Source: Raillietiella orientalis (lineage: Eukaryota). From it: DNA of 64,000 nt. Shown here piece by piece: positions 1-51,160 of the stretch (position 1 is the first letter of the stretch; every line of letters begins with the position of its first letter). The stretch lies in NCBI GenBank assembly GCA_036172245.1, contig JAYWIR010000050.1:1-64000 (forward strand), given 5' to 3'. The position numbers and the translations under genes are program-made. The notes beneath the pieces were generated by a model that was given only the letters and a program-made list of their open reading frames with translations, did no database searches and was not told where the DNA came from.

Positions 1-36
1 TTAAAAAGAAACGCCCCGGGCGTACCCGGATTTAAA

Positions 37-1876
37 CCTCCAAGGCTGGCAAGAAGGCCGTAAGGCGTCCGGCCTCCCCTCAGGAGTCCCCCACTTCCGA
101 CCCCGAGGTGAAGGTCCGAAGAGTAGCCTCCGTTTCCACGGCACCGCGCAAGAAGGCTGGACGTAAGTCCACGAAGCCAAGGAAGCTCGTCTCCCCCGTC
201 GAAGGGGAAGAGAAGGCTTCCGCAAGCGAGGGTGCCATGAGCGTGGGAAACTCTCGGGATCCGTCGCTCGAGAGACTCCCACGCACGGACACGTACGGGA
301 TGGAGAGGGTGGAGGCCAAACAGGTGCCTCAGGTGCCTGAGAAGGACGAAACCCCCATGAACATCCCTCCCGCCTCGCAAGAGGAGGGCTCCCCCACAAC
401 TTAATCTTCCCAGCAGTAATGCCGGTAATCTCCTCCCGCCGTCGTCTGCGCATCGCCGTTTGGAACGTGAACGGCATGACAGACGCCGGCAGGAGACGAG
501 ACATGGCCGCCCTTCTGGAGTCCTACGACCTTGCGCTGCTGCAGGAGATCCACGTGATCTCTGCAGAACAAGCGCAAGAAATCGAACGGATCTCCGGAGG
601 GCGGCTATGGTACAGGTGTGGGAGAGCGAAAAGTTGCGGTGTCGCCTACCTGCTTCGGCCAGCCGTCGAGGCCGCGGCTCGGGGCGTGCGGTTCGACGAT
701 CACGGTCGTGTCGCCCAGCTGACACTCAGGTGGTCCGACTCGATCGATCTGATCGTCACGAACGTGTACGCACCGAGTGGCGCGGACCTGATGAACAGGA
801 GGGCGAGGAAAGAGTTTTTCCTTGCCCTCCGGCGAGACTCGCTGACCGAAGCAGGCGTGCGGAATGCCCATCTGGTTGCAGGCGATTTCAACGTTCGCCT
901 GGAACCAGATGGGCTGAACCCCGAGCGTGACCTGGTCAACGAGGTGTGCATGGCGGTGCACACCTGTAATTTGTTGGCCAGTGCACCGAAGATGGAAGAC
1001 AGCATTGACCACGTGTTTCTTGACGAACATCTGTGCCCTCGCTTGGGCAGGCGCGGCAAGTTACCGTGCGAGCTGTCCGACCATCCCCCGCTAGTCCTCG
1101 AGATCCATCCGCGCGACAAAGGCCCCCCCTCGTCAGCGTGGCGTCTCCCAAGGGACTGACTGAAGCCCCTGGACGCGGCGGAAAATCTCCGCACGTTCAT
1201 ACAGAGCCTCAGGCTGCGGACACTCCAGGATTGGGACCGCTTCAAGCGGTCGGTTTAGGAGTTCTGCAACCAGTTCCCTCTGCACCGCCTACCTACGGGT
1301 TTTGGGACCGGGGTCCGTAACGAACGAGTTTACCTGCAGGCCCGTCGTTACGCCAGGACCCCCGACATCCGCAGGCTGGCGGAATACAAAGCGGGAACCG
1401 AGAGGCAAGCCTGGCAGTCCGGATTGGCCAGCTTACTAGACGATCAGGGCCAGAAGCACTCGGCACCTGCCACAATCCGCGGCCTGCTGCGGAGTTACTA
1501 CTCCTCCCTGTATGCCAGGGCACCTCCGGAGAGGAACGTCTCACGACTCCTGCTTCCGGAAGGCGCTCCAGCGATCGGGGAGGAGCAGAGAAAGACCATC
1601 GACGAGCCTTTCACGATGGACGAGATCCTCTCGGCCATAGGAAAGCTCAAGAGGGGCAAGGCTCCACGGGAGGACGGCCTGCCCGCGGTGTTTTACCAAA
1701 CTTTCGCTGCTGAGCTTACCCCCTTGGTACATCAACTCACCTGATACGCGAGACAGGTGACGTTCCCGCCTCGTTTCGTTCGGCAAAGGTTCGTCCCCTC
1801 CCTAATGGAGAAGATCTGAGGAGCATGAACAACTGGCGTCCCATCACAATAGTGAATGCGGACGCCAAGTTGCTGG
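37..1876 (+). mobile_element. L1/Tx1-like non-LTR retrotransposon, family A, internal fragment (ORF1 C-terminus, APE endonuclease, start of RT)
   Basis: ORF 419-1159 has APE motifs WNVNG, LQE, NVYAP, GDFN, IDH and SDH. Downstream are KAP-EDGLP and NWRPITIVNADAKLL (RT N-terminal motifs). Internal stops at 1157-1159 and ~1256. Confidence 0.92.
419..1876 (+). pseudogene. ORF2 N-terminal part (APE endonuclease to RT motif 2), disrupted and truncated
   Basis: ATG at 419, EN motifs present, nonsense codons and a frameshift, ends at an insertion junction. Confidence 0.9.
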
Positions 1877-3966
1877 TTGCCACCCGCTCACGCAGGGGCG
1901 TTTATTACAAATTCTCTATGATTCGTGGTACAAGATTCCACTACGGTCAACTCAACTGGACCTGCCGGGTCGCCGGTACGAAGACCGGCGCGAGTCTCCT
2001 CGGCAGCGGAAGGGGGTGGGGGAAAAAACAAAAAGAAAAATAAAACATAAAAAACAAAAAGATTTGGGAGGGTTGGGGGGGATCACTGACCACTGTGAGG
2101 AGGGTCCATCCTTTGCAGGATACCCTCGAGGTCTGTATGGTTCTCAGGTGGGGCCAGTCTGGTCGCAATCCGCAGGTAGCGGACTGCAAGTACGACGGCA
2201 TCCCTGTCGTGGCTGGGTCTTCTGACGTCGCTCCAGCACGTCACAATGCCGCGCGCGCAGCAAAGTGCAGCCAGGGCAGCGGCTGGAGGCAGGGCATCCT
2301 GCACGATCAGAAGCCGAAAAACGTCTCGGGGCTGGCTGCCCTCCTGGATCCGTAGGGAGGCACTAAGACGTTCCCACAGAGGTCGGAGGGCAGCACAATC
2401 AACAAGGAGGTGGGGTAGGGTTTCTCGTTCCCCACACCTGATGCAGGTAGGAGTTACTTGACCCCTGGTCCAGTGGTAACGGCATGCGTTGCAGGGTGGA
2501 CCCCAATGCAACAACAGAAGCGCCGACTCCTGCCACTTCAGGGGGAGGATCCTAGAACCGATTGATACCGGGGGCCACTTCAGATCATCCGGCTGGACGC
2601 CGAGTAGCTCGCTCGATCTCTGAAGTCCTCTCGGCTGGACACTAGGGGTAGTGGCGTCCGCAAGTTCCCCCGTGGACCAGCCGCTCATCAACTTCTCTTT
2701 GCCTGCGATGCAACAGGACACTTGCCACCTAGGCTTGCGGCTGCTGGAGAGCGCCCTCCTGAGATAGTGCATCGCCGTAGCTAGAGGGGTTGTCTCTGCC
2801 CACGTGCTTCTCGCGAGACACTGGAGAATCTTCCGCAGAGTGCAGCGGGAACAGGCGCCGCGTCGCAGGCAGTTCCACATCTGTCCGTTCTTCCGGTTTA
2901 TCTTCGACCACGTGCCAGCTGTCTCCTCCAGCCATGCGGAGGAGTTGGCAGTGCTGCATACCATCCAGCCGTTTTCCTTAACCAGAGTTGCCATTCGTCC
3001 CAGGAGAAGTCTGCATCTCTTGATCTTCCTGCTACGGCACAGAAGATAGGACGCGAGAACCTCCGTCCCGGATACACGGCTGGCAAGGAGTCGGGCCGGA
3101 ACGCACCAAGGGGTGCTCCATAACTTCGCTGCGATGGCGAGGTTTCGCCACCGCATCTGAATCTCTACTCGTTCCGTCATCAAGAGGCCAAGACCGCCAT
3201 CGCGACGTGGAGCACACTTGTCCTTCAACGGGACTCGTGGTCTCCCTCTTCCCCAAAGGGCAATTCTCTGGAGGTCCTTCGTCCGTTTCTTCATCTCTCT
3301 GGGGACGGGGCAAACAAAAAGTAGGGGGCGGAGGATAGGAGCCGCAAATGCGTTCCATACCGCGGCCCGTTCCGAAAGGAGAAACTTGTCTTCCAGGAAC
3401 GGGCCGATCGCCGTTTCCACTTTTTGGAGGCAGCCGGACCACGCTTTCGCAGGGGAGTAGTCCCCCAACGGCACATCAAGCTACTTCAAGCACCTCGCCG
3501 TGGGGATCTTAAAGCGGACCAAGTCCTGCTGCCCAGCATACGTCGCAATGACTGGAACCACCGTCGACTTAGCCCTGTTCACCGTAAGTTCGGTCCCGCA
3601 GGTAAGTAGATCGAAGAAATCCCCGACCGTCTTTGCCGGGGTGGACATCGGCAAAAGAAGCAGAAGATCGTCGGCTTACGCTGCTACGGCGAGCGTGCCG
3701 GGGCACGAGCTCGGCAAGGGGTCCAAGGTCACCCTGGACGCTCTCCGCATCAACTCAAAGTAGGTGCTAAAGAGCAGGGGACTAAGGCTGTCGCCCTGCA
3801 GCATGCCCCGACGTACAGGCACGCCGTACGCCATTTGACCTCTGAAAGAGATATTGATCAGCGCGCTGCGCCAGCAAGAGCGTAGGTAGGTCAGTAGGGA
3901 TGGAGGGAAGCCCATTCGTTCCAGGAACTCAAGCAGGAGATCCTAGTCCACGCAGTCAAACGCCTT
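1877..3966 (-). mobile_element. Non-LTR retrotransposon 3' half (RT from the RKAFD motif, zf-RVT-like finger, structured 3'UTR), probably family A
   Basis: RRGMLQGDSLSPLLF; ADD motif with a frameshift; RRDGGLGL; CIRCGERETLPHLLVDC in ORF 2083-3474; AATAAA on the minus strand at 1901-1906. Confidence 0.92.
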
Positions 3967-6560: not shown

Positions 6561-7010
6561 TTTCCACCCGGGTATGACCGGGGCGTTTATGAAAAAATAA
6601 AACTCTACAAGACGTGGTACGAGGCCCTACTAACGGCCTAACTACACCGGACCTGCCTGGACGACGGGACGCAGCCCTCCGTGACTCTCCTCGGTAGTGG
6701 AGAAGAATGTGGGAGAAAACAAAAAATAAAATAAAAACAACGCAAAAACAAAAAGTCTTTCGAGGGAGGGTAAGGGATCGCATTTCACTGGGAGGAAGGT
6801 CTAACCTTCGCAGGATTCCCTTGTAGTCCATTAGCATTGAACCCAGCTGGAACCATCCTGTAGCTCCCCGTATATTGCAGACCGCATAAGGGATGACATC
6901 TCTCTCGATAGCGTCCAATCCTCCGTCGCATGCATCGCTCCAGGCCGCCACGATGCCTCGTATAAAGCACAATGCTGCCAAGGCTGCGGCTGGCTGCAGG
7001 GCGTCACGCA
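6561..7010 (-). mobile_element. Family B 3' end (ORF2 C-terminus and 3'UTR)
   Basis: DALQPAAALAALCFIRGIVAAWSDA C-terminal block, plus the conserved 3'UTR and terminal motif at 6561-6712. Confidence 0.8.
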
Positions 7011-7024
7011 GCCGTAGTAGTCGT

Positions 7025-8006: not shown

Positions 8007-11000
8007 GTTTCCACCTGGGTACGCTCGGGGCGTTTATTTATAAACTCACCAATGCGTGGTACAAGGTCCCACCACATCCATGGACACAACGACCTGTAGG
8101 GACACCGGGACGCAGCCCGGTGTGGCACTCCCCGACAGCGAAAGGGGATGGGGGAAAAACAAAAAGAAGAATAAAAGAGATAAACAAACAAACAAAGTTT
8201 GGAGGGTAGGGAAGGGATCATCGGATGCTGTGAGGAGGGCCCATCCGTCGAAGGAAGCCCTCGAGGTCTGTCCGCATACTTCCCAGATGGGGCCATCGGG
8301 CAGCTCTCTGCAAGAAGCGTACTGCGTGCTGGATGATCTCTCTCTCTCTCGTTCCAATCTTCATCTTTGCTGCTGGCATCGCTCCAAGCCGCCACGATGC
8401 CTCGAACGAAGTACAGGACTGCGAGGGCTGCTGCTGGCTGCAGGGCGTCCCGCACAAAGAGAAGGCGCAAAACGTCTCTGGGTGCACTGCCCGTAGGGAG
8501 CCCAAGGGTCGTCCCGAACCGTTCTAAACGGGTCGGAAAGCATCACAATCAAATAAAAGGTGGGGAAGCGATTTCTGCTCCCCACACCTGGCACACGCAG
8601 GATCCACAACTCCCATCGTCCAATGGAAGCGGCGTGCGCTGCAGGGTAGACCCCAGTGCAACAGAAGCAACGCCGACTCTTGCACTTAAGGCTCAGGATC
8701 CTGGATTCCTTCATTACTGAAGGCCACTTGCGCTCATACCTGGGGATGGCGAGCAGCTCGCCCCATCTAAAGATTCCACGCGTCTGGACGCTCGGGGTCG
8801 TGGCGTCCGCCAGTTGACCCATGGTCCAGCCGCTCATCTTCTTCTCCCGTCCCTCGATGCAGCAGGAGACTTTCCACCTCGGCGTCCGGCTGCTGTGAAG
8901 TGCCCTCCTCAGGAAGGGCAGCGGCTTAGCTAAGCAGGTCGTCTCTACCCACGTGCATTTTGCTGGACTATCCAGGAGATTCCGCAGCGTTCAGCGGGCG
9001 TAGGGGCTGCATCGGAGACGATTCCACGTTTCGTGGCTCCTCTGGTTTACCGCTGCCCACGTTCCAATATTCTCCTCCAGCCAGGCGGGGGAGTTGGCGG
9101 GGCAGCAAACCATCCAGCTGTTCTCCTTGGCCAATGTTGCCATGCGCCCGAGCAGTAGGCCGCATCTTCGGATCTTCCTGCCGGGGCACAGAAGAAAAGA
9201 CGAGAGTCCCTTGCACCGGGACACACAGCTGGCAAAGAGGCGTGACGCAATGCAACATAGGGTGCTCCATAGCTTCGCTGCGATGGCCATGGTGCGTCAT
9301 CGCAGCTGTATGTTTAGGCGCTCCAGCGTCAGGAGGCCAAGACCACCGTCTCGACGCGGAGCGCATAAGTCATTTAAAGGCTCACGTGGCCTCCCGCTGC
9401 CCCAGAGAGCGATGCAGAAAAGGTCTTTGGTCCTCTTATTCAAATCACGGGGGACGGAGCAAACAAAAAGCAGGGGGCGGAGGATGGGAGCCGCGAACGC
9501 GTTCCACACCGCAGCCCGTTCCGGTAGAAGAAACTTGTTTTCCAAGAACGGGCCGATTGCCAAGTCTCCTTTTGGAGATGACCTGACCAGGCTTCAGCGA
9601 GACAGAAGTCCCCCAATGGGACACCCAGGTACTTCAGGCACCTGGCCGCGAGGATCCCCAAGCGGATCCAGTCAGGCCGTCCAGCCCACGTCGCCCCCAT
9701 CGGTACCACCGACGACTTCGCGTTGTTCACCCGCAATCCAGTCCCACGGCTTAGCAGGTCGAAGAAGTCCTTGACTGCGGCTGTCGAAGCGGACATGGGC
9801 AACATCAGCAGAAGATCGTCGGCGTATGCTGCAATGGCGAGCGTACCGAGGCACCAGCTAGGCAAGGCAGCCAAGATTGCCCTGTACGCTCTAAGCACCA
9901 GCTCAAAGTAGGTGCTAAAGAGCAGGGGACTGGAGCTATAGCCCTGCCGTATGCCTCGTCGCACCAACGCGCCATACACCTGTTGACCTGGAAAACTGAT
10001 ATTAACAATGGCGTTGCACCAGCAGGAGCAAAAGTAGGAGAGAAGGGAGGGTGGGAAGCCCATGCGACCAAGGAGCTCCAACAGTAGCTCCTGGTCCACC
10101 CAGTCGAACGCCGTTTGCAGATCGACCGCGATCGCTAGGGCGCCCTTCCCAGCCCCGGTATTCATTCCCAGCCCAGCTGGCGGACCCAAAGTTGAGCTGC
10201 CAATCTTGGCCCCGGTTTCGTTCGGACAACGCTGCGCATGGAACCATATGCTCGCGAAGAACAGGTTGGCATCCATACTACGCCCGGGAACAGCATATGT
10301 CTGTTCCGTGCTAATTATGGAGACTGACACCTGTCCTAAACGCGAAGCCCACAGCACAGCAATTAGCTTGGCGTGCGTATTCACAATTGTGATGGGACGC
10401 CAATTGCTGAGTTGTCTTAGCTCTCCTCCCTTTGGGAGGAGCCTCAGTTGGGCTCACCGAAACGAGGCGCGAACTTTGCCTTCGTCGCGGATCAGCACGG
10501 TCAACTGAAGCACCAAGGGGGCAAGCTCTGTGGCGAAGCATTGAAAAAACTCCGCGGATAGGCCGTCCTCCTTCGGCGCCTTACGACTCTTGAGCCTTTT
10601 AATACCGGTAAGAATTTCGCCGGTTGTAAAAGGTTCGTCGAGGATAATCAACTCTTCCTCCCCTATTGCCGGGGCTTCGTCCGAAAGCAGGAGCCGCTTG
10701 GCAACCCTCTGTGGGGGTGCCCTGGCGTGGATGGAGCAATGAAATTGCCGTACGAGGTGCCTGATCACGTGTTGGGCCGCGCGCTCCCGACCCTCGTCGT
10801 CCAGCAAGCTGACTGACCCAGATTGCCAGGCTTGGCGCTCGGCCCCGGCTCGGTATTCAGCCAGGCGACGGACGTTGGGGGTTCTATCGTACCGGTGGGC
10901 CTGTAAATAAGCTGTATGCTTGCGACCTTCTTTCCCAAATCCGAGGGGCAGACAGTGCAAGGGGAACTCCTCGCAGAACTCCCAAACCGAGGCCTTAAAT

Positions 11001-15019: not shown

Positions 15020-17100
15020 CGCAAGGCGGTCCACTGCGTAAATGAGGATCTCCTGCTGGAGCTGCTGGAACGCCCCGGTCTCTCGGCGCACCTCGTGGCG
15101 TATTTGCGCGCTTGCTGGCGCCACGCGCTTATTTCCATCTCTTTCAGCGGCTACCACGTGTACGGCGTGCCGGAGCGGCAAGGCATCAGGCAGGGCGACA
15201 GTTTAAGCCCGTTGCTTTTCAGGATCTTATTTGAGTTGGTGCTGAGGGCGTACAGGCTGACGCTGGCCAACCTGTCGAGCCTTTGTCCTGGAACGCCCTC
15301 CGTGGTGGCCTATGCTGACGACCTGCTTCTCCTCTTACCCTTGACCACCGCGGCGTCCAGTCTCCAGGATTTTTTCGAGCTGATCAGCCGGGGAGCCGGC
15401 ATGAGCGTAAACAGGTTCAAGAGCGTGGTCGTACCTATTGCTGCGGCGTGAAAGGGGCAGTCCGACTGGATCCGCCTGGGGATCCCGGCCGCTTCGTCCA
15501 CTTAATATCTGGGCGTTCCGCTAGAGAACATCAGCCCAGTGGAAGTGTGGTCGGACTGCCTTCAGAAGGCTACGAGTGCGCTGAGCCCGTTCCAGCATGG
15601 CAGATTCCTCCTGTTGGAGCGGGCCGCGATATGGAACACCTTCGTAGCGCCCCTCTTGCACCACCTGTTTTATGTTTGCCCGCCTTCCTACTCGGCGAAG
15701 CTCCAAGCGCACATCCTGTTGAGGAACGCTCTGTGGGGTCCTGCAAGGTCTAAGATCCGCCTGAAAGACTTGGCCACTCCGCGTCGGGATGCTGGATTAG
15801 TCATCCTGACGCTGGAGAGAATCGAGCTGCAGCTGTAGCTTCGAATGTTGGCCCTGTGCGCCAACCTTTGGTCCACTCCGTGGTGCGCTCCTGCGCGCCT
15901 GCTCCCGCGCCGCTGCACAGGCAGCGATGGACTTCTGTCGCTGCGTCCGCACACGGAGCACCCCACGACAAGTTTCGGTTTCCCGTTGAAACCCCTCTAC
16001 CGGCACCTGGCAGCCCAGGAATGGATCCTCTGCCGCCCAACGAACTTTCAAGCCTGGCGGCAGGAACCGTTGTATGGCTGGGCAAAGCACCAGGATGTTT
16101 CTTTCCTGGAACTCCGTTGCGTTCACCTCTCCCCGTACTGCACGGTGGATGAGGTCTGCAGCAGCCAGGAGAAGTGGACCGGCCTGTCCCTCAGCCCCCT
16201 TGCCGACGCACTGTCAGCCCTCAGGGCAAGAGATGACAGCTGCGAACCGGCGAGATGGGAGGTCGCCTGCACCATTGCAGGAACAACACGACCTATTGCC
16301 GGCTGGAGGACTCGCGAGCTGGCAGACGCCGCCACGCCTCGTCACATCTCGAAGGGACTCCTTCGATGGAGCGAACACTTGCGTGTGCCCTTCGAAGAAC
16401 TTGTGGTCCTTCCCTCCTGTTTGAACACTTCTGTGTTCTCCCTTTCGTGAAAGCAGGACGTCATCATGCTGGTGCATTGGGGTTTTCACTCCAACCAGCG
16501 GAAGAACCGTGTTTCCTGGGTAGTCGTCTAACCAAACTGTAAGCGGTGCGGGGAAGTGGAAACGCTCCCGCACCTGCTTTTGGACTGCGGTGCCCTCCAA
16601 AGACTTTGGCGGAGGCTGGCCTCAGCTCTCCTGCACCAGGGGGACGCCGCGAGGGAATTGATGCGCCGCTTCTTCACGCCAGTCTTTGGGTGCTGTCGTT
16701 GCAACCGTGTGTTGCATTCGCGCCATCATCAAGGCCCATTGAGAGTTGGAGAGGCTGGCCATCGTTCGTCATCCCACCGGATTAGCCAGCGCAAGCATGT
16801 CGTCGGCTGCCGAGTGGGCACATCTTCCACAGGACGTAAGGAGAGAGAACGCCGGCATCCATCACCGGTTTTGAAAGGAAGGAACGGACTCACCAAAGAC
16901 TCCTATCATCTGCCCTCCATATTTTTATTTTTATTTTTTATAGTAGTGTATTTGTGGTCCCATCCCTACTGTTCCGGACTTTCAGCATATCGACCTGCCT
17001 GTCGGGAATCCCACTTCCTTCGTATCTCGTTTTCCCCTTTGTCCGGGAACTCTGTTCCCGGATAGTTTGTAATAAACGCTTCGGCGCACCCGGGTGACAA
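15020..17100 (+). mobile_element. Family E 3' half (RT from RKA to 3' terminus)
   Basis: RQGDSLSPLLF, YADDLLL, RRDAGLVILTLERI, ETLPHLLLDC; AATAAA and terminal motif at 17071-17096. Confidence 0.9.
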
Positions 17101-19110
17101 ACAACCGACCCCCCGCGATCGTCTTGATCTCCTGTGCGTCTGCCGCGGTGATCACGTGGATCTCCTGCAGCAGGGCCAGGTCAAGCTTACGCAGGGTGTC
17201 GGCCGTATCTCGCCTGTTACCGTCGTCGCGCATCCCGTTGTCGTTCCAACAGGCGGCGCGAATCCGACGGCGACTGGCGAGCACCGGTGTTACTCCTGGA
17301 AAGATGGCGATGCGGCGTCCGCCACCTAATGGTGCGGGAAGCTAGGTGGAGGAGGAGGGTCAGGCGTTGCGTGCACCTGGTCTTCCTCCTCCATGGATAA
17401 CGGCCCCTCGAGCGGGTAAACCTCAGGTGGGTTCGCGCCTACCTATTGGCCCTCCTCCATGGAGGCGGGCTGTTCAGGCTCCGCGACTGCAGGGAGGACT
17501 TCGCTTTCCTGCTCACCCTTTTCCAGCGGGGTGGCCGACTCGACGGCTTTCGAGCGTGGGAGTTCCCCTTCCTGGATTCCCACGCTTCCGCTACCTTCCT
17601 GCTTCTACTCGCTGGTGGAGGGAAGGCGCCTCCTGGGCTTCTGAGACTTGCGTTTCGACTTCCTGCGGGGTGCCTCCGAGGAGGAGGATGTACTTCCGTC
17701 CCCCAGGTCCAACTCACCTTTAGGAACCGATTTTGCGGAAGACGGCCTTCGCACGGCCTTGCGCGAGTGGTTCTCACGCTCGGCCGGCGTGGCCGCGAGC
17801 TCCTCCGCCGCCGGCGCGAACGCGGCGTCCTCGACTTCGACCGTCGCTATTTCGCGCGGCTCACCCTCTGTTTAAACAGAGGGTTCGCCGTCGCGAACCT
17901 CGGGCGCGGCGGAAACGGCGAGAGGAGGCTCGTCGTCCCGGGTGGCAGTCTCGGAAACGGCTATGCGTTCCAGTGCCATTGTACATTCCCGCATGGTTTT
18001 GGAGAGCGGCCCAGGTTTTTCCGCCTTGCCGACTGTCTTTTTGACCGCTTTCGCGTGTTCCGCTGGGGACACCTTTTTCTCCTTCCTGGCCTTAACTAGC
18101 TGCCAGCCGTCCTGGACTCCCGCGTCTTCGGAAGGTTTTTCTTCCGACGCCTGTGTCTGAGGAACGGGGGCTAGCGGCTGCTGCCAGCCAGTATCTCCCT
18201 TTGGTGTTTCGACCAATTTTCCGCGTTTTGCCTGCGCTTTTTTTGCGGCAGGTGGCACCGGAGTGGGGCGTTTAGGGCATACGCGGCGCACGTGGCCCTT
18301 CTCCCCGCATAAGTGGCACACAATGTTCGGGCACCGCTTGCAAAAGTGTCCTACTGCATTGCAGTAGCCACAAATGCGGGGTTTCCCCACGTACCAAAAG
18401 TCTACGACTTCGTCATTGACCTCTAGTTTGTGGAAAATCCCACTATCCTTCTTCACCGTCACACGCGCGGCGGCCTGCCCTCCGAAAAGGCTACCGTAGC
18501 CATAAAAGATTGTGGCCTTTGGCCATAACGCGTGAACTTCTCCGTATTTTTTCAGCTTATCATCAAACGCAGATCGCGTCATGCGGCTGGTGATCCCTGT
18601 CAGATGTACCACTACGGAGCGGTCCATCGTGACTGGCAGGATCTTGCGTCCGCCCACGTTCAGCGGGGTAGTAATCAAGCTTTGCGCCAAGGTGATGTCC
18701 TTGCAGACAACCTCGACGCGCTGACCCCCGCTGAGCACGGATAGACCGTCAAGATCCTTCTCTAATACGTTGGCGTTCTGCAGCGCCTTCGAAAAAGCGC
18801 GTGCAGTTCGCCCGTCGAAGAGATTGTCTACCTGGTATGCCAGAATGGGCTTGTACCCAGCTGCCCGGTAGGCTGTTATCTCGGCCATGGTTTCTGCGCT
18901 CGGCGCGGCCACCATGGCGCTCCAGCTCCTTGCCTTGAGCGGCGAGAACGATTTCGGGGCGGACGACCCTGTTTCTGTAGGCTCTGGGGATGGGCAAGCC
19001 TCCCTCACACCTACCTACATCGTGGTGTCGTCAGGCATCGCTGCCATCGGACACCAACGATGTTCCACACAAAAAAACACACAGAAAAAACCGCTTCCTG
19101 TTGACTCACT
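17101..19110 (-). mobile_element. Family G 5' part: ORF1 (two CCHC knuckles) and start of EN
   Basis: ATG at 19038 in the same GGCAGCGATGCCTGACG context as family A. CGYCNAVGHFCKRC and CHLCGEKGHVRRVC. EN start RIRAACWNDNG...LQEIH. Confidence 0.88.
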
Positions 19111-19129
19111 TGGGATCTAAGTAAAAACA

Positions 19130-20555
19130 CGTCCTTCCGTAACGAAAGAGCGTAGTTGTATGCCCGTCGTTACGCGAGGAACCCCAATGTCCGTCGCCTG
19201 ACAGAGTACCGAGCCTTGGCCGAACATCAAGCCTGGCAATCCGTGTCGGCCAGCTTGCTTGACAGCCAGGGCCGGAAGCACTCGGCTCCCGCTAGGATAC
19301 TCAGCTGCGATGGCGAATCCTCGCCATCTCAGCGAAGTTATGGAGCACCCCTTGGTGCGTTGCGGCCCGACTACTTGCCAGCCGTGTATCCTGGACGGAG
19401 GGTCTCGCGTCCTATCTTCTGTGCCGTGGCTCGAACATCAAGAGATGCGGACATCTTTTGGGACGCATGGCAACTCTGGCTAAGGAAAACGGCTGGATGG
19501 TACGCAGCCCCGCCAACTCCTCCGCATGGCTGGAGGAGACAGCTGGCACGTGGGCGAAGACTAATGAAAGAAATGAAGAAATGTGGAACTGCCTGCGACG
19601 CGGCGCCGATTCCCACTGCACTCTGCGGAAGATACTCCAGTGTCCCGCGAGAAGCACGTGAGCAGAGACAACCCCTCTTGCTACGGCGATGCCCTTCCTG
19701 ATGAGGGCGCTCTCCAGCAGCCGCAAGCCTAGGTGGCAAGTCTCCTGTTGCATCGCAGGCAAAGAGAAGTTGATAAGCGGCTGGTCCACGAAGGAACTGG
19801 CGGAATCCACTACCCCTAGTTTCCAGCCGAGAGGACTTCAGAGATGGGGCGAGCTACTCGGCATCCAGCTGGCTGACCTGAAGTGGCCTCCGGTATTAAT
19901 TGGTTCTAGGATCCTCCCCCTGAAATGGCAGGAGTAGGCGTTTCTGTTGTTGCATTGGGATCTACCCTGCTACGCACGCATCCACTACTGGACCAGGGGT
20001 CGAATAGATCCTACCTGCATCAGGTGTAGGGAACGGGAAACCCTTCTACACCTTGTTGATTGTGCTGCCCTCCGACCCCTGTGGGAACGTCTTCGTACCT
20101 CCCTATGGATCCAGGAGGGCATCCAGCCCAGAGACGTTTTTCGACTTCTGTTCGTGCAGGATGATATGCATCCCGCCGCTGCCCTGGCTGCACTTTGCTG
20201 CGTATGCGGGATTGTGACGTGCGGGAGCGACGTCAGACCGAGCACGACTAGGATGCCGTCGTACTTGCAGTCCGCTACCTGAGGATTGCGACCAGATGGC
20301 CCCACCTGGGAACCATACGGACGGACCTCGAGGGCATCCTGCAAAGAATGGACCCTCCTCCCAGTGTTCAGTGATCACTCCCCAACTCTCCCAAATCTTT
20401 TTGTTTTTCCCCCCACCCCCTTCCTCTGCCGAGAAGAGTCGTGCCGGTCTTCGTACCGGCGACCCGGCAGGTCCAGTTGAGTTGGCCGTAGTGGAGCCTC
20501 GTACCACGAATCATAGAGAATTTGTAATAAACGCCCCTGCGTGACCGGGTGGCAA
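19130..20555 (+). mobile_element. Short linker fragment plus a 3' part (ORF2 C-terminus and 3'UTR) of the same family as 1877-3966
   Basis: 19310-20555 is the reverse-complement homologue of ~1877-3150, including the 3'UTR hairpins. Confidence 0.88.
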
Positions 20556-21548
20556 CCAGCATCTTGGCGTCCTCATTCACTACTGTGATGGGACGCCAGT
20601 TGTTCATGCTCCTCAGATCTCCTCCCTTAGGGAAAGGCCGCACCTTTGCCGACAGAAACGAGGCGAAAACGTCAACTCTCTCGCTTATCAGCAAGGTGAG
20701 TTGCTGTACCAGGTGGTAAGCTCAGCCGCGAAAGTTATGTAAAACTTCGCGGGCAGGCCGTCCTCCCCTGGAGCCTTGCGACTCTTGAGCTTTCCGATGG
20801 CCGAGAGGATCTCGTTCATCGTGAAAGGCTCGTCGAGGGTCTTTCCTTCCTCCTTTCCGTTTGCTGGAGTGCCTTCCGAAAGCAGGAGTCGTGAGACGTT
20901 CCTCTCCGGAGGTGCAGTGGCATACAGGGAGGAGTAGTAACTCTGCAGCAGGCCGCGGATTTGGGCGGTTGCCGAGTGCTCCTGGCCCTGATCGTCCAGC
21001 AAGCTGGCCGATCCGGACTGCCAGGCTTGCCTCTCGGCTCCCGCTTTGAATTCTGCCAGCCTGCGGATGTCGCAGATCCTGGCGTAACGACGGGCCTGCA
21101 GATAGGCTCTTTCGTTACGGATCCCGGTCTTAAAACCCGTAGGTAGGCGGTGCATAGGGAACTGGTCGCAGAACTCCTGGACCGACCGCTTGAAGCGGTC
21201 CCAATCCTGGAGTGTCCGCAGCCTAAAGCTCCGTATGAGCGTGCGGAGATGTTCTGCCGCGTCTAAGTGCTTCATTAAGTCCCCTGAGAGACGCCACGCT
21301 GACGAGGGGGGCACTTGTCGCGCGGATCGATGTCGAGGACTATCGGGCGATGGTCGGAGAGCTCGCACGGTAACTTGCCGCGTCTGCCCACGCGAGGGCA
21401 CAGGTGATCGTCAAGAAACACGTGGTTGATGCTGTCTTCCATTCCCGGTGCACTGACCAACAAATTTCAGCTTTGCACCCTCATGCACACCTAGTTGACC
21501 AGGTCACGCTCGGGATTCTGCCCATCTGGTTTCAGGCGAACGTTGAAA
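20556..21548 (-). mobile_element. Family A internal fragment (end of EN to RT motif 2)
   Basis: INHVF..SDH, KAPGEDGLP, NWRPITVVNEDAKML. Confidence 0.88.
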
Positions 21549-26915: not shown

Positions 26916-27132
26916 CGCGGCCTACGCGACAGTTGGTAGATTGCTCCTCAACTGCCGAGTCGGTGAACTCGCTTCGCGGCTCGGAGCATTGTGCGCACGA
27001 CAACTTAATCAGTTAATTGTGCTCGTGTGTGCCCGGAGAGGGGAAGTTTCCAGACGAAACTACAAAAGAAGCGCCGAGGAGATCTCGGCGGAAGACCTGC
27101 AGTGGTCCCGTGCAGCAAGACCAGCTGCCAGG

Positions 27133-28893: not shown

Positions 28894-28906
28894 GTCTTCC
28901 TTTTTT

Positions 28907-31900: not shown

Positions 31901-32425
31901 GCGATCGGCACGACGCTCTGGAGGAGTGACCTCCCGCCGGGCACCCAGGATGACCTCCTGATGTTTTATCACGGGGGAATCCAGAGTGGGTCCCGATTGC
32001 AGCACTTCACAGGAAGACGGGAAGACCGAGACTGCGCAGCATGTGGCGACGACGACACGAGACTTCACGTCTTGACGTGTCCCACACTGCTGCATGACTG
32101 GCTGATCCTGAAAAGGATCATCGGACTCACCACCAGTTCCGTAATGGAGATCCTCGCCGGGATGTTTCATGGGGATGGTAATGTTCCCTGTTACAATCCC
32201 ATGGTGAGGACGACCATAGCCCTCTTCATCACCGCCATACTTGTGCGGTGGTGGAAAATGAGGAAAGCCAGGAGAGCCGCACCACCGATGGAGATCCTAC
32301 AAGGGCTCTTGAAGAAGGAAATCGGCATCAGGAACTGCGGGAAGATCCACGCCTGGACGTACCGATTCATCCTGAAGAGGATCCAGGACGACGCCCGGGA
32401 CCATCCAGCTGGAATTCCCCCCTGA
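28907..32425 (+). pseudogene. Family L ORF2 (1172 codons; APE endonuclease, RT, zf-RVT-like finger), three in-frame TAG
   Basis: WNVNG, LQETH, GDLN, IDH, SDH, QWRPISILN, DMEKAFD, YADDLL, KYLG and CAACGDDDTRLHVLTC, all in a single frame. Confidence 0.92.
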
Positions 32426-32560
32426 AAAGCAGAACTCTAGTGCAACCCAAGGACCCCAAAGTGCAAAATGTTTGTATTGAGTGAATGAGAGTGCGAATGT
32501 AAATTTTGTATTTTTATAGAAAAATAAACTTACCCTACCCCTTGTGGGACTTGGGGAAAC

Positions 32561-35500
32561 CTGCCGAGTCGGTGAACTCGCTTCGCGGCTCGGAGTATTG
32601 TGCGCACGACAATTTAATCAGTTAATTGTGCTTGTGTGTGCCCGGAGAGGGGAAGTTTCCAGACGAAACTACAAAAGAAGCGCCGAGGAGATCGCGGCGA
32701 AAGACCTGCAGTTGTCCCGTGCAGCAAGACCAGCTGCCAGGATGCAGGCATCTGGAGGAGGAGTGGAGAGACCGTCGTCCCTCATGGAAGCCATGAAGGT
32801 AACGTGCGGCAACAGCGAGGCGGTATCAGGCATGCCGAGGATGGCGCCCGCGGCGGGCTTTGCTGCGCCGGCGGCAACAATGCCAAGGGTCGTGCCCGCG
32901 GCGACGACGGCGGAGGTCGTGCCCGCGGCGGTGACGCAGAGGATCGTGCCCGCAGCGGGGTAGGTCGTGCCTGGGGCGGCGATGCCGAGGGTGCCGCCCG
33001 CAGCGGCAACGGTGGCGAAGTCGAGGGTTGCGCTCGCGGCGGCGGCGGCCCAGGCGTTACCCACGGGCGTCCACGCGGTGCAGGGAGCGACGCCATCTTG
33101 TTCGGCTGCGGCGTCGCAGCCCTTTTTTTATGCGTCGATGGCGGCTGGACAAGCGAGTGTCCACCCACCAAGAAAATTCGGGTAGCCGCTATGCGCCAAA
33201 GTCAAAAGGTGGATCGGCCAATCGTGGAATTAGGGTCGAATGTGAAGCTTCTCATTTTCAAGACTAAACTGATCAAATTTAATAATATCAGAGAGGTGTA
33301 TCTGTCCCTCGATAAAGCGGATATCAATTTTCATCGCATACAGGCGATCATACCGGCAAATAACGGGTTCACAGTCTTCACAGACTGTGAAAATATTAGA
33401 AAGCGATTGATCCAGAAGGGGATCAATATACAAGGGAGGACGGTTTGTGGTATTGGCGAAATGCCATACACAACCGTCTTTCTGAACGGCATCTCCATCC
33501 TCACACCGCAACTAACGGTGTGGAACTTTTTGGAGCAGTATAGGGAAGTTCTGGACCTTCAATTCCAGAACTTCTCTGGAAATATATTTTCTGGCAACAT
33601 GATCGCCAAAATGAAGTTGAAAGAGGGAGCTGTGTTCCCTGGATTAGCCGTTCTTGACGAACAATCCCAGGGAGTGAACGTGCGATACCGGCAACAGCCG
33701 ATATTCTGCACCGGGTGCAAGCAGTTCGGCCACAGAGCCGGCGCTTGCTTAACGTGTCGTTGCTTTCGCTGCGGCAAAGTAGGACATCAAGTCCGAAACT
33801 GCCCGCAGCCGGAGGTGTGCTCCTTCTGCAAGAAACACGGACATACCAAATGGAGCTGTCCGCAGTTTGCAAACTGCAGAAGGATTCGAGGTCTCTCTTT
33901 CGTGAGAGAGAGAAACAATAAAGAGGCGGAACCGCCTCAGAAGGCAGGAAGGCCGAAGAAGGTGAAAGAAGCCGTCCCGTTATCGGAAGACGGCTTCATA
34001 CAGGTAGGGAAGAAAGAAAAGAGGAGGATGCTCGTCAAGGAGCAAGAAGCTCCTCTTATCCTGGAAGATGAAGAGCAAGAAGGCAAGAAGATGGAGGTAG
34101 CGCAGGAAGGCGCGGAGGAAGAAATAGCCGAAGCCACTCCGGTGTCGCAGGAGGCCCTGCAATCTACGGAGGAGCTGGCATCACTGGCTAATGAAGTCCT
34201 AGAAGTGCAGAGCGGTCGTCAGCAAGAGAAAATCTTGCAGAAGATCTGCAATCCACAGGAGAAGGTCAACCACGTTGTGAAGGTCACCGAGAGCGAGAAG
34301 CTGGAGGAAGAGCTTCTCGACGTAAAGGGGAACTTCTGCGCCAAGGTCGAGATAGAGACGCTATCTCGAAAACTGATCGCGCGGGTCGAACACTCAACGG
34401 AGGAGGCGGAAGTAACCGACCTCACCAGAACAGAGAGTGACGCCGGCAGCGAGAAGATCGCTGCTTCTTCATTGTCTGGAAGAGCACGCTCTCTCAGACA
34501 GAAGAAGCTAAAGAAGGCCAAGAAATAGGTCTTCCTCTTTTATGGCCTCTTCCCTATCGACCGCCAGGAGGTTGAACATCGCCTCCTGGAATGTAAACGG
34601 TATGGTCGACCAGGGAAAAAGAAAAAGGATTGTGCGGACCATCGCACAACAAGACATAGTGTGCCTGCAGGAGACCCACAAGATGGGTCTCGAGATTAGT
34701 CAGCAAATGAAACGGCGATTCAACAGGCAGATGTTCGTCAGCGAGGAAGAACGGAACACGCAGGGTGTGGCGGTCCTAATCATGAAAAACTTGGCCCCCA
34801 CTATTCTGGAGGTGTTCTGTCCCCAACCCGGACGAATCATCGTCGAGCGACTGGCCTGGTCCGCTACTGTTCACCTCATCCTGGTGAACGTGTACGGGCC
34901 GCACAGGATGAAACATCGTTGTGCGGAGGCACTGCATGCAGCACTCCGTGAAAATGTTACCCCCAAGGACGTCGTGATTGTGGCTGGCGATCTCAACATC
35001 TTGGATGAGATGACTCACTCCCAAGACGCCAGAGAAAGAACGGCGTATCGGCGGCTATCCAAAGAGTTCGGACTGGTGTGGCGAACTGCAAGTCACAAGC
35101 CGATCGATCACGTCCTGCACAGCACCGAACTTGGAAATCGCATCCAGGGATTTCGAGACATTATGACCACGTTGTCCCATCACCCCCTGGTGCGGTTTTC
35201 CCTAAGAACGGTAAATCCTCGGCGGAGGCAATGCACCAGGGCGGCGCTCATCAGCATGCCCGCCTGTTTCGAAACCCATCCCGGAAATCAGGCTGTCCTG
35301 GAGACTATTCTGAAGGCAACAACAATCCCAAGAGTCGCCGACTGGGACAGCCTGAAACACAGGATACACCTGTTCGCAAACATGCAGTTCCGGGATAGGC
35401 GTTTGAGGCAAGAGGCGTACCGGGAGCTGAGCATCCAAGATCGCTCACTCTCGAAGTACTTTGATCGGTACGAGAGTCAATACGTCTTCAAGAACATAAA

Positions 35501-38199
35501 AGGGGAAGTCGGCGTGCTGGAGAAGACAAATCTGGCAACAGATATCTTCTGCATCCAGTACGACGGTCAAGAGCGACAGTCGTCTGAGGACATCGTGGAA
35601 GCCTTTCACAGGCATTACACGAAACACGTCAGGCGACAACACCTCTGTCGATCTAGTCAACAGGCCTTTCAGAGCTATCTCGAGAAGAGGACCGACGACT
35701 TCCAGCGGAACAGACTGGAGGAGGAGTTCTCCGAAGACAAGTGAAGACTGCGTTTGGTCAACTACGCAAGGATGTGGCAGCGGGCCCTGACAGTGTACCC
35801 ATCAGGCACTATCAGCGGTGCCTGCAGGCCTACTTGCGCTTGTTCCACCAGTTGACCCTCTGCATCCGTGAAGAAGGCAGACTACTTGGGTCCTTTTACG
35901 AGAGTAGGATGAGATTGTTGCCAAAAGGAGGCGATCTAACGCAGGTCGCTCAATAGGGGCCAATCTCGATCCTCAACTCCGATGCCAAGTGGTTTTCGAA
36001 GATCTGGTCCAACCGCTTAGGCAGGGTCATGTGGAAGCTCATTTCTCCGGTCCAAACGTGTGCAGTCCCTGGACGTCACATGTCGGACAATGTCAAGTGT
36101 GCCCAGGCCACTGTTGGATTCAGCCGATACGTCGGAGAGAACCTGGCGCTGGTGTTCACTGACATGGAGAAGGGTTTCGACTCCATCGACCACGGGATGC
36201 TGCTGAAGGTTCTGGAAAAGCTAGGCCTTCCGGAACACTCGAGCAACTTTGTGAGGGTGTTACTTGAGAACCAGTACTGCCGGATCAAGTTAAGCAGCCA
36301 GGAGACGGCAGCAATCAGGATGGAACGAGTAGTCCGACAGGGCGACTCGCTAAGTCCGATGCTGTTCGTCATCTATATGGGGGCATTGTCGTCCTTTATC
36401 GAGAAGAGCGGAAGACTGAATGGAATAATCATTGATGGCCAGCGTCTTACCCATCTGGCATACGCTAATGATCTTCTCTATTTCATCAAGGGAGTGAGAA
36501 ACCAACGAGCGTTTCTGGATGTGGTAGACCTGATGGATCAAGGCCTGGGTCTAAAGATCGACGCCCAGAAGAGCCAGATTTTGCCCGTCGTAATCCTGAA
36601 CCTCTTCACTCTCACAGGGAGTGGATTCCGTTCGGTGGACACTGCCAAATACCTGGGAGTCTACATCGGCGACGACTCTGCGTTGAAGCTGCTGTGGTCC
36701 GAAATCCTGTGCAAAACGTGCAAGGAAGCAGCGAAGTACACTCGACTGGATTTGAACATGAAGCGGAGTGCCAACCTATAAAACAAGGTACTTCTTCCAA
36801 AAGTACTCTTCGGGGCGGTCTTCGCTAGAATGAAAAAAGAAACCACGAGAGAAGTTGCGAAGCTGCAGCGCAAAACATTGTAAGGCCACTATTGCCCAAG
36901 AGTTCGTCTAAAACTCCAGTGTCGCCCCAGGAAAGAGGGCGGTTGCGGAATGAAATCGCCTGCACATTCCATGGAAATCATGGATACGCGACACATCCTG
37001 GACATTGCCACTCACTGGGATGACTGCCCGTATGCGGCGCACAGAGCCTACGCGTTGTTGCTGAACAACTCGAAAGGCCTGATGACTGCGCTGCTAGGCC
37101 GAGCAGGGAAATGGATAAAAATCGACCCAACCTGGAGAAGGAAGCAACGGCTGGTGCGAAAGAACATAATCAAAATCGTGCCGAGAAGTAGGGAACTCTG
37201 GCAGGACGAGTCCATCCTGGTGATCCCTTGGATGCTTCCTGTCCCGCCGGACACGAGAAGCTGGATCCACCAGCTGTCCAGAGTTACCCTACAACGATTC
37301 CAGGATTGGAAACGAGGAGGGTACCTACATCACCCTCGTATACTTAGGTATATAGAGATTATCTTAGGAAGGTTTACCCACATGGCTTGCAAGGTGTGGA
37401 TCAACCACAACGACTTTGCGTGGTCCAGGGTAACCAGAACAAACCTCCGAAGACTAATTCAAGAAGAACACAGTGATATTAGTGCCCTCCAGGAAGCCGC
37501 CGATCGCTACGGAAGTGACCGGGTCAACCTGTTAGCGATTGGCACGATGCTCTGGAGGGGTGACCTTCCGCCGGGCACCCAGGATGACCTCCTGATGTTT
37601 TATCATGGAGGAATCTAGAGTGGGTCCCGATTGCAGTACTATATTGGAAGACGGGAATATTGAGACTGCACGGCATGTGGAGACAACGACACGAGACTTC
37701 ACGTCTTGACGTGTCCCACATTGCTGCATGACTGGCTGATCCTGAAAAGGATCATCGGACTTACGAACAGATCCGTAATGGAGATCCTCGCCGGGATGTT
37801 TCAGGGGGATGGTAATGTTCCCTGTAACAATCTCATGGTGAGGACGACCATCGCCCTCTTCATCACCGCCGTACTTGTGCGGTGGTGAAAAATGAGGAGA
37901 GCCAGAAGAGCCACACCACCGATGGACATCCTACGAGGGCTCCTTAAGAGGGAAATCGGCGTTAGAAACTGTGGAAAAATCCAAGCCTGGACGTTCCGAT
38001 TCATCCTGAAGAGGATAGAAGACGACGCTCGAGACCAAACAGCAGGAAACCCACCATGAGTGCAGAACCTGTGAACCCATGGACTTCAGATCGGTAAAGA
38101 CAGTGCAAATGGTATGAATAAGACTGTAGAGTGATTGTTTTTGTAGAAAAATTTTTGAAAAATAAATTTATCCCACCCCTTGTGGGACTTGGGGAAACC
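32561..38199 (+). mobile_element. Family L copy 2, head-to-tail with copy 1 and more decayed
   Basis: Colinear with 26952-32561; ORF1 to 34528, ORF2 from 34542 with stops and frameshifts; same terminal motif at 38161-38199. Confidence 0.94.
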
Positions 38200-40600: not shown

Positions 40601-40689
40601 CTAAGCATCTTAGCTTTGCGAAAGAAACAGTCCTCCCCCTCTTTCTTGTGCATTCGACCGCCTACTCAGCGGAGCGCTAGGTGGGACGT

Positions 40690-45850: not shown

Positions 45851-46499
45851 TTAAGAAACATAGTTTAGTGAGTGAATTCTTCACGCAATCTTAATGACCT
45901 GATGCCCGAAGACTAATCTTGAAAGTGAGATCTTAGAACTAGTGACCATACAGAACACTTCCATAAAAAGATGTTGAAAATTGATTTACCACACTGCATG
46001 TCGGAAAGGGGAAAAACGAGGAGGTCGGAGGGCTGCTGACTGCCTGAAGCGTGCTCGATCCTGGAGGCTAGTGGTCATTGCCGGCTTTTGCTGTCACATG
46101 CATACATTCTTTGGTATTTATGACTTGAAACGTCAAGGAGCGGCTCATGGCCTGCGAACCGTTCCTTACGTGAACGAGTCCGCTTGTTCGGAATGTCACT
46201 TCAGATCGCTATGAGTCCGAACGCTGCTCCTCGTTGTCAGGAAAGCAGCTCTGAGGGACTCCTGAGGACTTTTCCGCAGTTAGCACGCTCCCTTCCAGGA
46301 AATCCGTGAGGCACCCATTTATCCGCATGTATGCTGCACGTGGAGATTCGAACCCAAAACGCTTCGTGGCATAACGGATTTTGCGGTTACGCGGCCGGCT
46401 GCCTGTGTTTCCCTGTTCTTCACTCAGATGGTCGTCGTAGGTGCCGTCGTAGAGTGCGATCACATCCGCGACGGAGTCCCTAAAGGTCATGGCGGATAT

Positions 46500-48820: not shown

Positions 48821-50850
48821 TTTCATCCGGGTAAGCCAAGGCTTTTATTATTTGAAAAACATTTTTACCATTTTTAATTGCTGTCAATTATTAATTACTT
48901 GTATTTGTGTTCCTGTCAGAACACATTGTTCTTATTAGCTTATCTTTTGCACTTGTCCTTTCCGACTGGTATGCCGGTAAGGCCTTCTCCTCTGGCGAAG
49001 GGGACGGGAAAAAGAGGAAAAAAAAACCAAAGAAATAGAAACGCTTGAGGGACAATGTTTATGGGGAGGGGAGGGAAGGTAAGGGATCACTGTTCGCCGA
49101 GGGAAGGCCTCTGCATTTGGTTCCGGATGCGAACAAGTGGTGGCAGAATATTTCTCATCCGGCGCCAACGAGAAGCCTTCTCAATGGAGATGACTGCTCA
49201 GTGGATGGCATTTCGATTACTGCAGCCTCATATTGATGCGTTCCACTTGTCCAATATTCCTCGTATGCAGCCGTGAGCTGCAACACATACGACACCTAGC
49301 AGCGAGTTCCGCATCAAGAGGGGACGGAACATATTTCTACGGTCGCCCATCGCTTCGTTTATGGCCGACGAGAGTCGATCGCACGTTCGGCGGGGAGCAA
49401 CACATTCGATGAGTGAGTGGTCTCCGTTTCACCACAGTTTGTACAATGAGCAGCCAATCTCCCCAATGTCCAGTGAGACAGGCGTGCTCTGCTCAAAACT
49501 CCCCAATAGAGCACAAGCAGCGCCGTCTCCTGCCAATCCAAAGGGAGGGTGTCACTGTCCCAATACGCCGGGGGCCACTGAACCGCCTCCGGAGGCATAT
49601 CTGGCATCTCGTTCCAGCGCACAAGACCATTCGGGATTGTAGCGTCCGCTAGTTCCAGGGAAGTCCACACCTTCATTAGTTTTTCCCTGCATAAGATGAG
49701 GCAGGATACTTCCCACGATGCCTCCTGTTGGCTGTCCCTAACTTCCCTGAGGGAGGGCAGCACGGGGGCAAGGGGGGTGAAGGCAGCCCACATAAGTTTC
49801 CGTGGGTTGCAAACGATCTCCTCAGAGGCTGGCCAGCGTTCCTGCCTCGACGGAGGTAGGAGAAGTCCACAACGCTGGATCCGTTGATTTTTGCCCACGC
49901 GGAAACGGACTCCGGGAGCTAGGTAGTCCTCCTTGCGGGGCTGCAGGAGATCCACGGGTTGCTCCTCACCAGGGCTACCAATGACCGAAGCTGAAACCTA
50001 CAATCGTACAGTCTAAAGTCGTTGGCTACGAGGACTGAAGTCAGTCCGCCGCATCCGGTTGCCCAGTGGGCGAGGAGGCGTATGGGCGCACACCATGGTG
50101 CTGTCCAATATTTTGTCGCAAGGGCAAGTTTCCTTATTTGGAGCTGACGCTCCATGCGCTCCAACGTCAGGAGACCAAGTCCACCGTCCCTGCGTGGAGC
50201 GCACTGGTCTTTCAGTCGGACGCGGGGTCTCCGGTTACCCCAAATTGCTTTTCTGATGGGGCCCCTTGTCCGTGTCTTAATTTGGAGAAAGGCGAAGCCC
50301 ACAAAAAGTAGAGGGCGAAGGAGGGAGGCCGCAAAGGCGTTCCACACCGCGGTCCGTTCCCGCAAGTAAAGCTCGCTGTCCCGGAACGAGCCGATCGCTA
50401 ACTCCACCTTTTGAAGACGGTCGCACCACGCTTCTGCAACGCAGAAGTCCACCAGCGGAACGCCAAGGTACTTGATGTTCTTGCCGGTGGGGATCACCAA
50501 ACGGATCCAATCCGACCGTCCTTCCTGCGACGAGTCCGAGAAGATGATCGACGACTTCGTCCTGTTCACCTCGAGGTCTGTCCCGCGGCGCAGCAACTCG
50601 AAGAACTCCTCGAGCGCCGATGCCGAGATGGACTTGGAGAGCAGGTGCAGAATATCGTCGGCATAGGCCGACACGGCGAGCGTGCCGAGACACGGGCTCG
50701 GCAGGGTTGCCAAAGTCTCCCTGTATGCTCTCAGCACCAACTCAAAGTAGATACTGAAGAGCTGGGGGCTGAGGCTGTCGCCCTGCCGTAACCCGCGGCG
50801 CACCAGCACGCCGTACACGTGTTGCTCTCTAAAAAGGATGTTCCTTGTCA
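48821..50850 (-). mobile_element. Family J-like 3' half (RT to 3' terminus)
   Basis: RQGDSLSPQLF, YADD, KYLG, RRDGGLGL, CTNCGETE; 3'UTR homologous to 25470-25760. Confidence 0.88.
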
Positions 50851-50949
50851 AGGTGCAGCAGCAGGAGGATAGTTAAGCCGTAAAGGCGGTTGGGAAGGCA
50901 GGTCGACTTTGCAATCCTCCCCGACGAGGAGACTTGCCGAGTCGCACGT

Positions 50950-51160
50950 GGTTTCACACCCAGGTTTGCCAAGTACTTTATTATTTCAAAAAAAGTAACG
51001 AGCATGTGCAGGACCACTGGCCGTTTATTGTCCGAAAGAGTTCGGAACCTGCCGAGGCACCGGCACGCAGGCCGGCGAGTTTCGCCTCAGCAGCGGAGGG
51101 GGAAGGGACAAAGAAATACACACTGTTTACAAAAATATGGGGAGACTGGGGGAAGAGATC
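50950..51160 (-). mobile_element. Family F 3' terminus (3'UTR structure and terminal motif)
   Basis: TGCTGAGG...GCCGGC-CTGCGT-GCCGGT...CCTCGGCA stem-loop, AATAAA and GGGTGTGAAACC on the minus strand. Confidence 0.7.

Follow-up and report, generated by a model that had tools for sequence, protein, structure and literature searches.

How does a retrotransposon of the L1 type start reverse transcription on its own RNA when its copies carry no poly(A) tail? L1-type elements are the textbook 'relaxed' long interspersed nuclear elements (LINEs), which grab any polyadenylated RNA. The question is raised by the first 64,000 nucleotides of contig JAYWIR010000050.1 from the Raillietiella orientalis assembly GCA_036172245.1 (the window; all coordinates are window positions, and all the ends and hairpin copies described come from it), of which bases 1-53,600 (GC about 55-60%) consist of non-long-terminal-repeat retrotransposons nested within each other, as mapped by self-BLAST and tblastn. 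We give a probability of roughly 0.55 to the reading, made by analogy with known LINEs, that diverged families of one L1/Tx1-like lineage use a 'stringent-type' 3' end in place of a poly(A) tail. Two features of such ends were found here: the 3' end is conserved across otherwise diverged families, and a stem-loop in the 3' untranslated region (UTR) is retained by compensatory changes.

An initial annotation of the window had listed twelve element 3' ends lacking tails. All twelve positions hold the motif it described, namely AATAAA or a variant, a GC-rich terminal block of about 20 nt, A2-5 and often then C or CC (its example letters are out of step with its coordinate order). The poly(A) or A-rich tail that is typical, though not universal, among L1/Tx1-like LINEs is present at 0/12, nor is there a simple-repeat tail at any of them; the longest A-run is 5 (0/12 with more than five A's). 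AATAAA or a one-off variant stands at a fixed distance before every end. An nhmmer profile built from the twelve ends matched precisely those twelve in the 64 kb, with E-values between 1e-10 and 3.8e-4, and the remaining 16 listed matches all have E >= 0.66; two extra, degenerate ends (M and N) were found beyond them. The count of independent events has to be lowered by one: ends B and F belong to a single insertion, which interrupts the reverse transcriptase (RT) domain of an element Y inside a duplicated block (885-3160 versus 21549-19301, 88% identity), so there are 11 events and not 12. The ends are listed below; ORF1 and ORF2 are the open reading frames of the elements, and stems 1 and 2 are those of the pseudoknot proposed for the terminal block and weighed further on.

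7..38, + strand: end A, terminal block found by nhmmer; the element body precedes the window.
1875..1906, - strand: end B, terminal block AATAAA..GGGTGGCAACC; same insertion as F.
6561..6590, - strand: end C, terminal block; stem 1 has decayed.
8007..8038, - strand: end D, terminal block; the final C is a target base.
17071..17102, + strand: end E, terminal block; the junction with the host element is too diverged to read.
20526..20557, + strand: end F, terminal block; duplicate of B.
21549..21580, - strand: end G, terminal block ending GGGTGAAAA(A), no C.
25466..25497, - strand: end H, terminal block; no other copy has the two proposed stems both intact.
26952..32561, + strand: element I, near full length, with ORF1 bearing CCHC knuckles and an ORF2 of APE-RT-CCHC layout with three stops; terminal block at 32523-32561.
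32561..38199, + strand: element J, head-to-tail behind I and 87% identical to it; terminal block at 38161-38199.
about 45978..46016, + strand: end M, degenerate and resembling the I/J ends (..GGGGAAAAAC); the ORF2 that precedes it shares about 50% identity with the ORF2 of I.
48821..48849, - strand: end K, terminal block with stem 1 of AAGC/GCTT.
50950..50983, - strand: end L, terminal block; stem 1 absent.
about 51519..51548, - strand: end N, degenerate terminal block (nhmmer E 0.66), absent from the initial list.

Are these ends part of the elements, or host target sequence, as the initial annotation asked? Comparisons with empty sites place the terminal block within the inserted DNA. A paralogous empty site of H shows a 4-6 bp duplication, (AA)CTTC at 25463-25468 and 26251-26256, flanking an insertion of about 25466-26250, and a public contig spans the H site without the insertion, 25462 being joined to 26251 (contigs from one public DNA run, containing 9% of the window's words and placed at 80% likeness, were mostly diverged paralogues, and the placements listed missed the twelve ends bar this bridge). 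For the insertion ending in G, the target duplication is 14-15 bp long and lies at 21535-21548 and 39545-39558. Where testable (H, G, B/F), the ends are true insertion boundaries. Insertion sites varied among the elements.

The base following the A-run is C in 9/12 independent ends (binomial p about 0.001 at C = 0.28), and CC follows it in 5/12 (p about 0.001 at local composition). Five junctions could be compared with uninterrupted paralogues. Junction A, with element Y, overlaps the target by AACC, as in uninterrupted Y copies, H by AAC and D by C; G has no C; and at B/F the CC is element-only, being missing from the paralogous empty site. The overlaps between element end and target are thus 1-4 nt long, and the C(C) is common to the target in 3/5 resolvable junctions (A, D, H); the initial annotation had itself called the terminal CC partly confounded by microhomology. 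On the simplest reading of these junctions, A(n)C(C) would be the end of the template, and a nick would be favoured if its 3' end could anneal there; a target preference of the endonuclease could also account for the C(C) enrichment.

What, then, do the ends share? Mean pairwise identity is 66.5% in the terminal block, 27% in the adjacent upstream spacer and 34% in the region further upstream: the block is under constraint, and the 3' UTR carries selected signals. This difference in conservation makes a structured RT-recognition signal at the 3' end, as the initial annotation had proposed, plausible on sequence grounds, although the pseudoknot and tRNA-like forms that it had suggested for the signal are unsupported. 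The real covariation in the 3' UTR sits about 100 nt upstream, not in the terminal pseudoknot. When the last 226 nt of eight families were aligned, a hairpin absent from the initial annotation appeared 95-141 nt upstream of the element end. Its helix P2, an 8-bp stem with a hexaloop of consensus CUGCGU, has 7/8 pairs kept through two-sided changes (both by RNAalifold). Paired cells in P2 amount to 90.6% versus 70.7% in column shuffles, doubly changed cells to 16 versus 4.9, and the covariation score to 0.732 versus 0.311; 0/500 shuffles reach any of the three values, and controls slid along the alignment score 0.12-0.16. An outer helix, P1 (CUGCCG..CGGCAG), is found in some families, and P1 and P2 together show double changes at 12/16 pairs (0/500 shuffles). 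The helices also come out when copies are folded one by one by minimum free energy (MFE), the lowest z-score being -3.3. A covariance model (R1) trained on nine copies recovered those nine and one untrained copy, N (35.8 bits, E 2.8e-7), the next match having E 0.19. The ten copies are:

1960..2008, - strand: P1-P2 domain of B (R1, 54.6 bits; both helices in the MFE fold).
6651..6699, - strand: P1-P2 domain of C (49.6 bits).
8092..8140, - strand: P1-P2 domain of D (53.2 bits; in the MFE fold).
16970..17018, + strand: P2 hairpin domain of E (32.4 bits).
20424..20472, + strand: P1-P2 domain of F, duplicate of B (52 bits).
21635..21683, - strand: P2 hairpin domain of G (34 bits).
25593..25641, - strand: P2 hairpin domain of H, extended to 10-11 bp (35.9 bits; fold z = -3.28).
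48949..48997, - strand: P2 hairpin domain of K (32.4 bits).
51047..51095, - strand: P1-P2 domain of L, 9 + 6 bp (50.1 bits; fold z = -3.14).
51595..51643, - strand: P1-P2 domain of N, untrained (35.8 bits, E 2.8e-7).

The order of the 3' UTR in group-1 families is: T-rich tract, stem-loop domain, variable spacer, AAUAAA, GC-rich block of about 20 nt, A2-5 and usually C or CC. The T-rich or pyrimidine tract lies just behind the ORF2 stop in all group-1 families (for example at 2020-2060 of the minus strand, about columns 55-100 of the alignment), and a C-rich run follows it before the stem-loop domain. One more block, ..TGTACCACG.., which may form a GTGG/CCAC stem, sits between hairpin and AATAAA in families B/F, C and D (1925-1945, 6615-6635 and 8055-8075, minus strand); the remaining families have not conserved it.

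If these elements work like other stringent LINEs, an element protein (ORF2 or ORF1) would bind the stem-loop, the terminal block or both; the binding would set the RT at the very 3' end; and the nicked target would prime on the last A(n)C(C) through short microhomology, so that no long A-tail would be copied. Several observations weigh against this account. The I/J family, whose 3' UTR is short, lacks the P1-P2 domain, which means that not every family of the lineage has the hairpin; taken by itself, P1 pairs in just 61% of cells; and the terminal C is missing at three ends (C, G, K). A single 64-kb window supplied no more than 10 hairpin copies and 14 ends, of which many are decayed and B/F are duplicates, and the shuffle controls are blind to relatedness, their counts not being probabilities. 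The hairpin could also serve RNA stability, export or ORF1 protein binding. Finally, among 80 L1-like metagenomic loci (RT identity 23-38%) fetched with a four-sequence protein alignment, the terminal block was found in none (best nhmmer E 0.3) and neither was the hairpin domain (0 matches at E <= 1), and the strict pattern of the terminal motif had 0 matches in the metagenome contigs. Among the 22 relatives whose ORF reaches 1000 aa or more and whose downstream flank covers 300 nt or more, 11 have an A-run of at least 8 downstream, most of them shortly after an AATAAA-like hexamer. With neither block nor hairpin in the 80 relatives, and with these A-runs, a structured end without a tail is thus a feature of this lineage alone within the set of relatives fetched. 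The relative L023 has, about 340-400 nt past its ORF2 stop, AATAAA, a short C-run/G-run hairpin, GGGGAAAAC and a 14-A tail; tail aside, this end resembles those of I/J and M, a single case that may be due to chance.

Could the signal instead be the structure that was originally drawn? The initial annotation held that the last 25 nt or so form a conserved H-type pseudoknot (stem 1 ACGC/GCGU, whose C-rich loop pairs with the GGG run) which, together with a templated AAAC(C), would be the signal for RT recognition or priming. We consider this unlikely. Most copies allow both stems to be drawn; in ten alignable ends compared with 500 column shuffles (which ignore relatedness and do not give probabilities), 82.5% of the cells are paired, against 14-49% in slid controls. 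Yet the shuffles themselves average 78.7% and 31/500 reach the observed value, while the covariation score is 0.239 versus 0.187, a level reached by 39/500. Double changes occur at 2/4 pairs of stem 1: A-U in H and K, and U-A in G. The compensatory change from ACGC/GCGT to AAGC/GCTT noticed earlier is real, but H and K are related families and it counts as one event, so that stem 1 has essentially one transversion-type compensatory event. Alternative pairs are also present in G and N, although the U-A pair in N can come from two CpG deaminations in a dead copy. In stem 2, 0/4 pairs are compensated, with one-sided C>U changes giving G-U only. Once N is included, 6/11 group-1 rows pair throughout stem 1, 4/11 throughout stem 2 and 1/11 (H) throughout both.

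The unalignable I/J family has the same topology (6-bp stem 1, CCC/GGGG), and the pseudoknot of H is equalled in only 2/300 dinucleotide shuffles; against this, the enumeration found none in D, G, L and M, and for eight of the nine copies having one, pseudoknots of equal size occur in 25 to 119 of 300 shuffles (8-40%). Terminal-block folds are unremarkable against shuffles (z -2.3 to +2.0). The proposed loops would be of 0-1, 0-1 and 3 nt, and connecting loops of 0-1 nt would be tight for a 4-bp stem 2. RNAalifold favours a plain stem-2 hairpin. A nested single hairpin was rejected as a candidate: it is equally drawable (78.6% paired) but shows zero double changes. A pseudoknot may thus exist but is not established by the covariation tests, which come out near shuffle level, and to speak of a 'conserved H-type pseudoknot' is to interpret rather than to observe. 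The block may fold as a stem 1 hairpin, a stem 2 hairpin, a nested hairpin or a pseudoknot. That C or CC is enriched behind the A-run would suit the pseudoknot reading, and the initial annotation had also raised the possibility of a tRNA-like end. Tymovirus RNAs have a tRNA-like 3' end and the Mauriceville retroplasmid a CCA end, and the likeness lies only in the idea of a terminal pseudoknot near a C-containing end. Unlike in those systems, no tRNA-like fold was detected (ARAGORN, 0 genes; Rfam, no match at any end at the gathering threshold or at E <= 5), and there is no element-encoded CCA or ACC(A) terminus, the ends reading A2-5, A2-5C or A2-5CC, with C's that overlap the target in 3/5 junctions. 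The tRNA-like idea has no support.

A combined scheme, in which the terminal block, as a compact pseudoknot or a stem-1/stem-2 switch, forms with P1-P2 a two-part RT-binding signal presenting the templated AAAC(C), seems to us similarly doubtful. If true, it would make this an APE-type L1-like element with an R2-like start of reverse transcription, independent of poly(A) and guided by microhomology, and it would fit the published idea of template-specific ancestral L1 elements.

Alternatively, the block might be a 3'-end processing module, with AAUAAA directing cleavage 25-33 nt downstream at the element end, followed by polyadenylation, and with the RT starting at the base of the tail and leaving 2-5 A's. 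The hexamer at a fixed distance before every end, the A2-5 at all of them and the A-runs of the metagenomic relatives soon after such a hexamer are what this scheme would give. A non-specific start within the tail would, however, give variable long A-runs, which 0/12 ends have; the C/CC enrichment, and the CC of B/F that the target does not explain, would be unexpected from poly(A); and the conserved 20 nt between hexamer and end are left unexplained. We regard this scheme, too, as improbable. An end shared without function, through common descent of related families (ORF2 nucleotide identity 65-72% by self-BLAST, with decayed motifs in several copies) or as host target sequence, is largely refuted by the empty sites, which show the block inside the insert, by the P2 pairing that survives two-sided changes and by the conservation of the block over the spacer, and is very improbable.

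A stringent-type end in this lineage would have precedents. The premise of the initial annotation, that L1-clade elements end in poly(A) or short repeats, was too strong: L1 families without a 3' repeat make up 9/233 in flowering plants and 5/15 in green algae (Ohshima 2012, PMC3472496), and the same study reports from monocots an L1 lineage with a conserved stretch of 45 nt at its end, which forms a hairpin with compensatory changes, counts three L1-tailed short interspersed nuclear elements (SINEs) among >800 L1-clade entries, and proposes that ancestral L1 recognition was stringent. That proposal is also stated in a 2013 review (PMC3747384). Like that monocot group (LINE1-1_ZM, with ZmSINE2/3), the elements here appear to be L1-clade LINEs whose 3' end is far more conserved than the rest and whose hairpin stem varies compensatorily while the loop is conserved, a pattern read there as specific template recognition by the RT (PMC3472496). 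They differ from it in host group, in an unrelated hairpin sequence, in the position of the hairpin (95-141 nt from the end) and in the second conserved block at the terminus; as to a SINE partner, no short element with the terminal block or the hairpin was found in this window. L1-clade LINEs, stringent ones included, mostly keep poly(A) (PMC3472496), whereas the elements here have none. The elements thus belong to a kind of system already described, found now in a new host group; what sets them apart is the absence of poly(A), the hairpin set back from the end and the separate conserved terminal block.

Outside the L1 clade, the L2-clade elements UnaL2 of eel and ZfL2 of zebrafish are likewise reported to show no dependence on poly(A) and to have a conserved 3' stem-loop recognised by the ORF2 protein and terminal nucleotides that prime (PMC3472496, PMC4176376); they end in short tandem repeats as against A2-5C(C) here, and the function demonstrated for them by experiment is only predicted for the elements of this window. 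In R2, the protein is reported to bind a folded 3' UTR, pseudoknotted in R2Tg (PMC12222951), and copies lack templated poly(A), so pseudoknots can serve 3' UTR recognition; that element has a restriction-like endonuclease, a single ORF and specificity for rDNA, whereas those described here are of APE type, with two ORFs and varied sites. A literature search, with most subscription papers and Repbase/Dfam outside its scope, returned no L1/Tx1-like element with a terminal pseudoknot. LINE lineages of L1 type that recognise their own 3' end are few, and an animal L1-like lineage with a covarying hairpin, a conserved block and no A-tail would add non-plant support for stringent recognition being ancestral. 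It would also predict few processed pseudogenes from these elements. The RNA signal is short and well defined, and can be tested in assays of target-primed reverse transcription.

To which clade do the elements belong? ORF2 holds an apurinic/apyrimidinic-type endonuclease domain (APE, PF03372, 1.4e-14) followed by RVT_1 (down to 1e-20) in Pfam-type matches, an order borne out by tblastn. In two families a CX2CX8HX4C motif stands at the ORF2 C-terminus, and the match to PF13966 (zf-RVT) is weak (0.027). ORF1 has three CX2CX4HX4C CCHC knuckles, with zf-CCHC matches too, and no RNA recognition motif (RRM) was detected in it. The closest solved structure is human L1 ORF2p (7e-29; best R2 protein 3e-15), a match which alone does not fix the clade because the PDB holds no other APE-type LINE clade. 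Among the nearest 30 representatives scanned, PF03372 with RVT_1 was present in 30/30, zf-RVT PF13966 in 23/30 and RNase H in 0/30. Word-based protein searches gave relatives at <=31% identity, almost all unnamed, and an atlas search led to 'reverse transcriptase' clusters only. RRM/zf-CCHC combinations are reported for ORF1 proteins of non-mammalian L1/Tx1 elements (PMC5203782), which would fit a Tx1-type ORF1. On this architecture, on the 30 representatives and on that report, we accept the elements as APE-RT LINEs and use 'L1/Tx1-like' as an architectural label.

The nest also records some of its own history. CTG is found at the start of I (26,949-26,954), at the I/J joint (32,559-32,566) and just behind J (38,197-38,205), and the pair has no longer target duplication on its flanks; its head-to-tail arrangement may have come from two hits at one site, from template jumping or from unequal exchange. 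Element Y with the B insertion forms a composite that occurs twice, the copies being about 88-92% identical (34-3160 versus 40407-39544 plus 21549-19301). The Y of the second copy was afterwards split by the element with 3' end G, which itself hosts the H insertion and the I-J pair. Two Y copies are 96.7% identical over 900 bp (34-933 versus 5313-6212) and about 84-89% elsewhere, which suggests a recent conversion or duplication.

The last 10 kb of the window (53,660-64,000) are mitochondrial-type DNA, with a GC of 26-36% and a strong G/T skew. Under code 4/5, open frames are found for an N-terminal fragment of cox1 and for nad2, nad1, cob, nad4 and nad5, and a large-subunit rRNA match lies at 57470-57807; the gene order resembles the arthropod ground pattern. 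The cob product is <=56% identical to any listed protein, the best being that of a pentastomid. This DNA adjoins the LINE nest within cox1, which leaves two origins for the junction: a large insert of mitochondrial DNA in the nuclear genome, or a join made in assembly.

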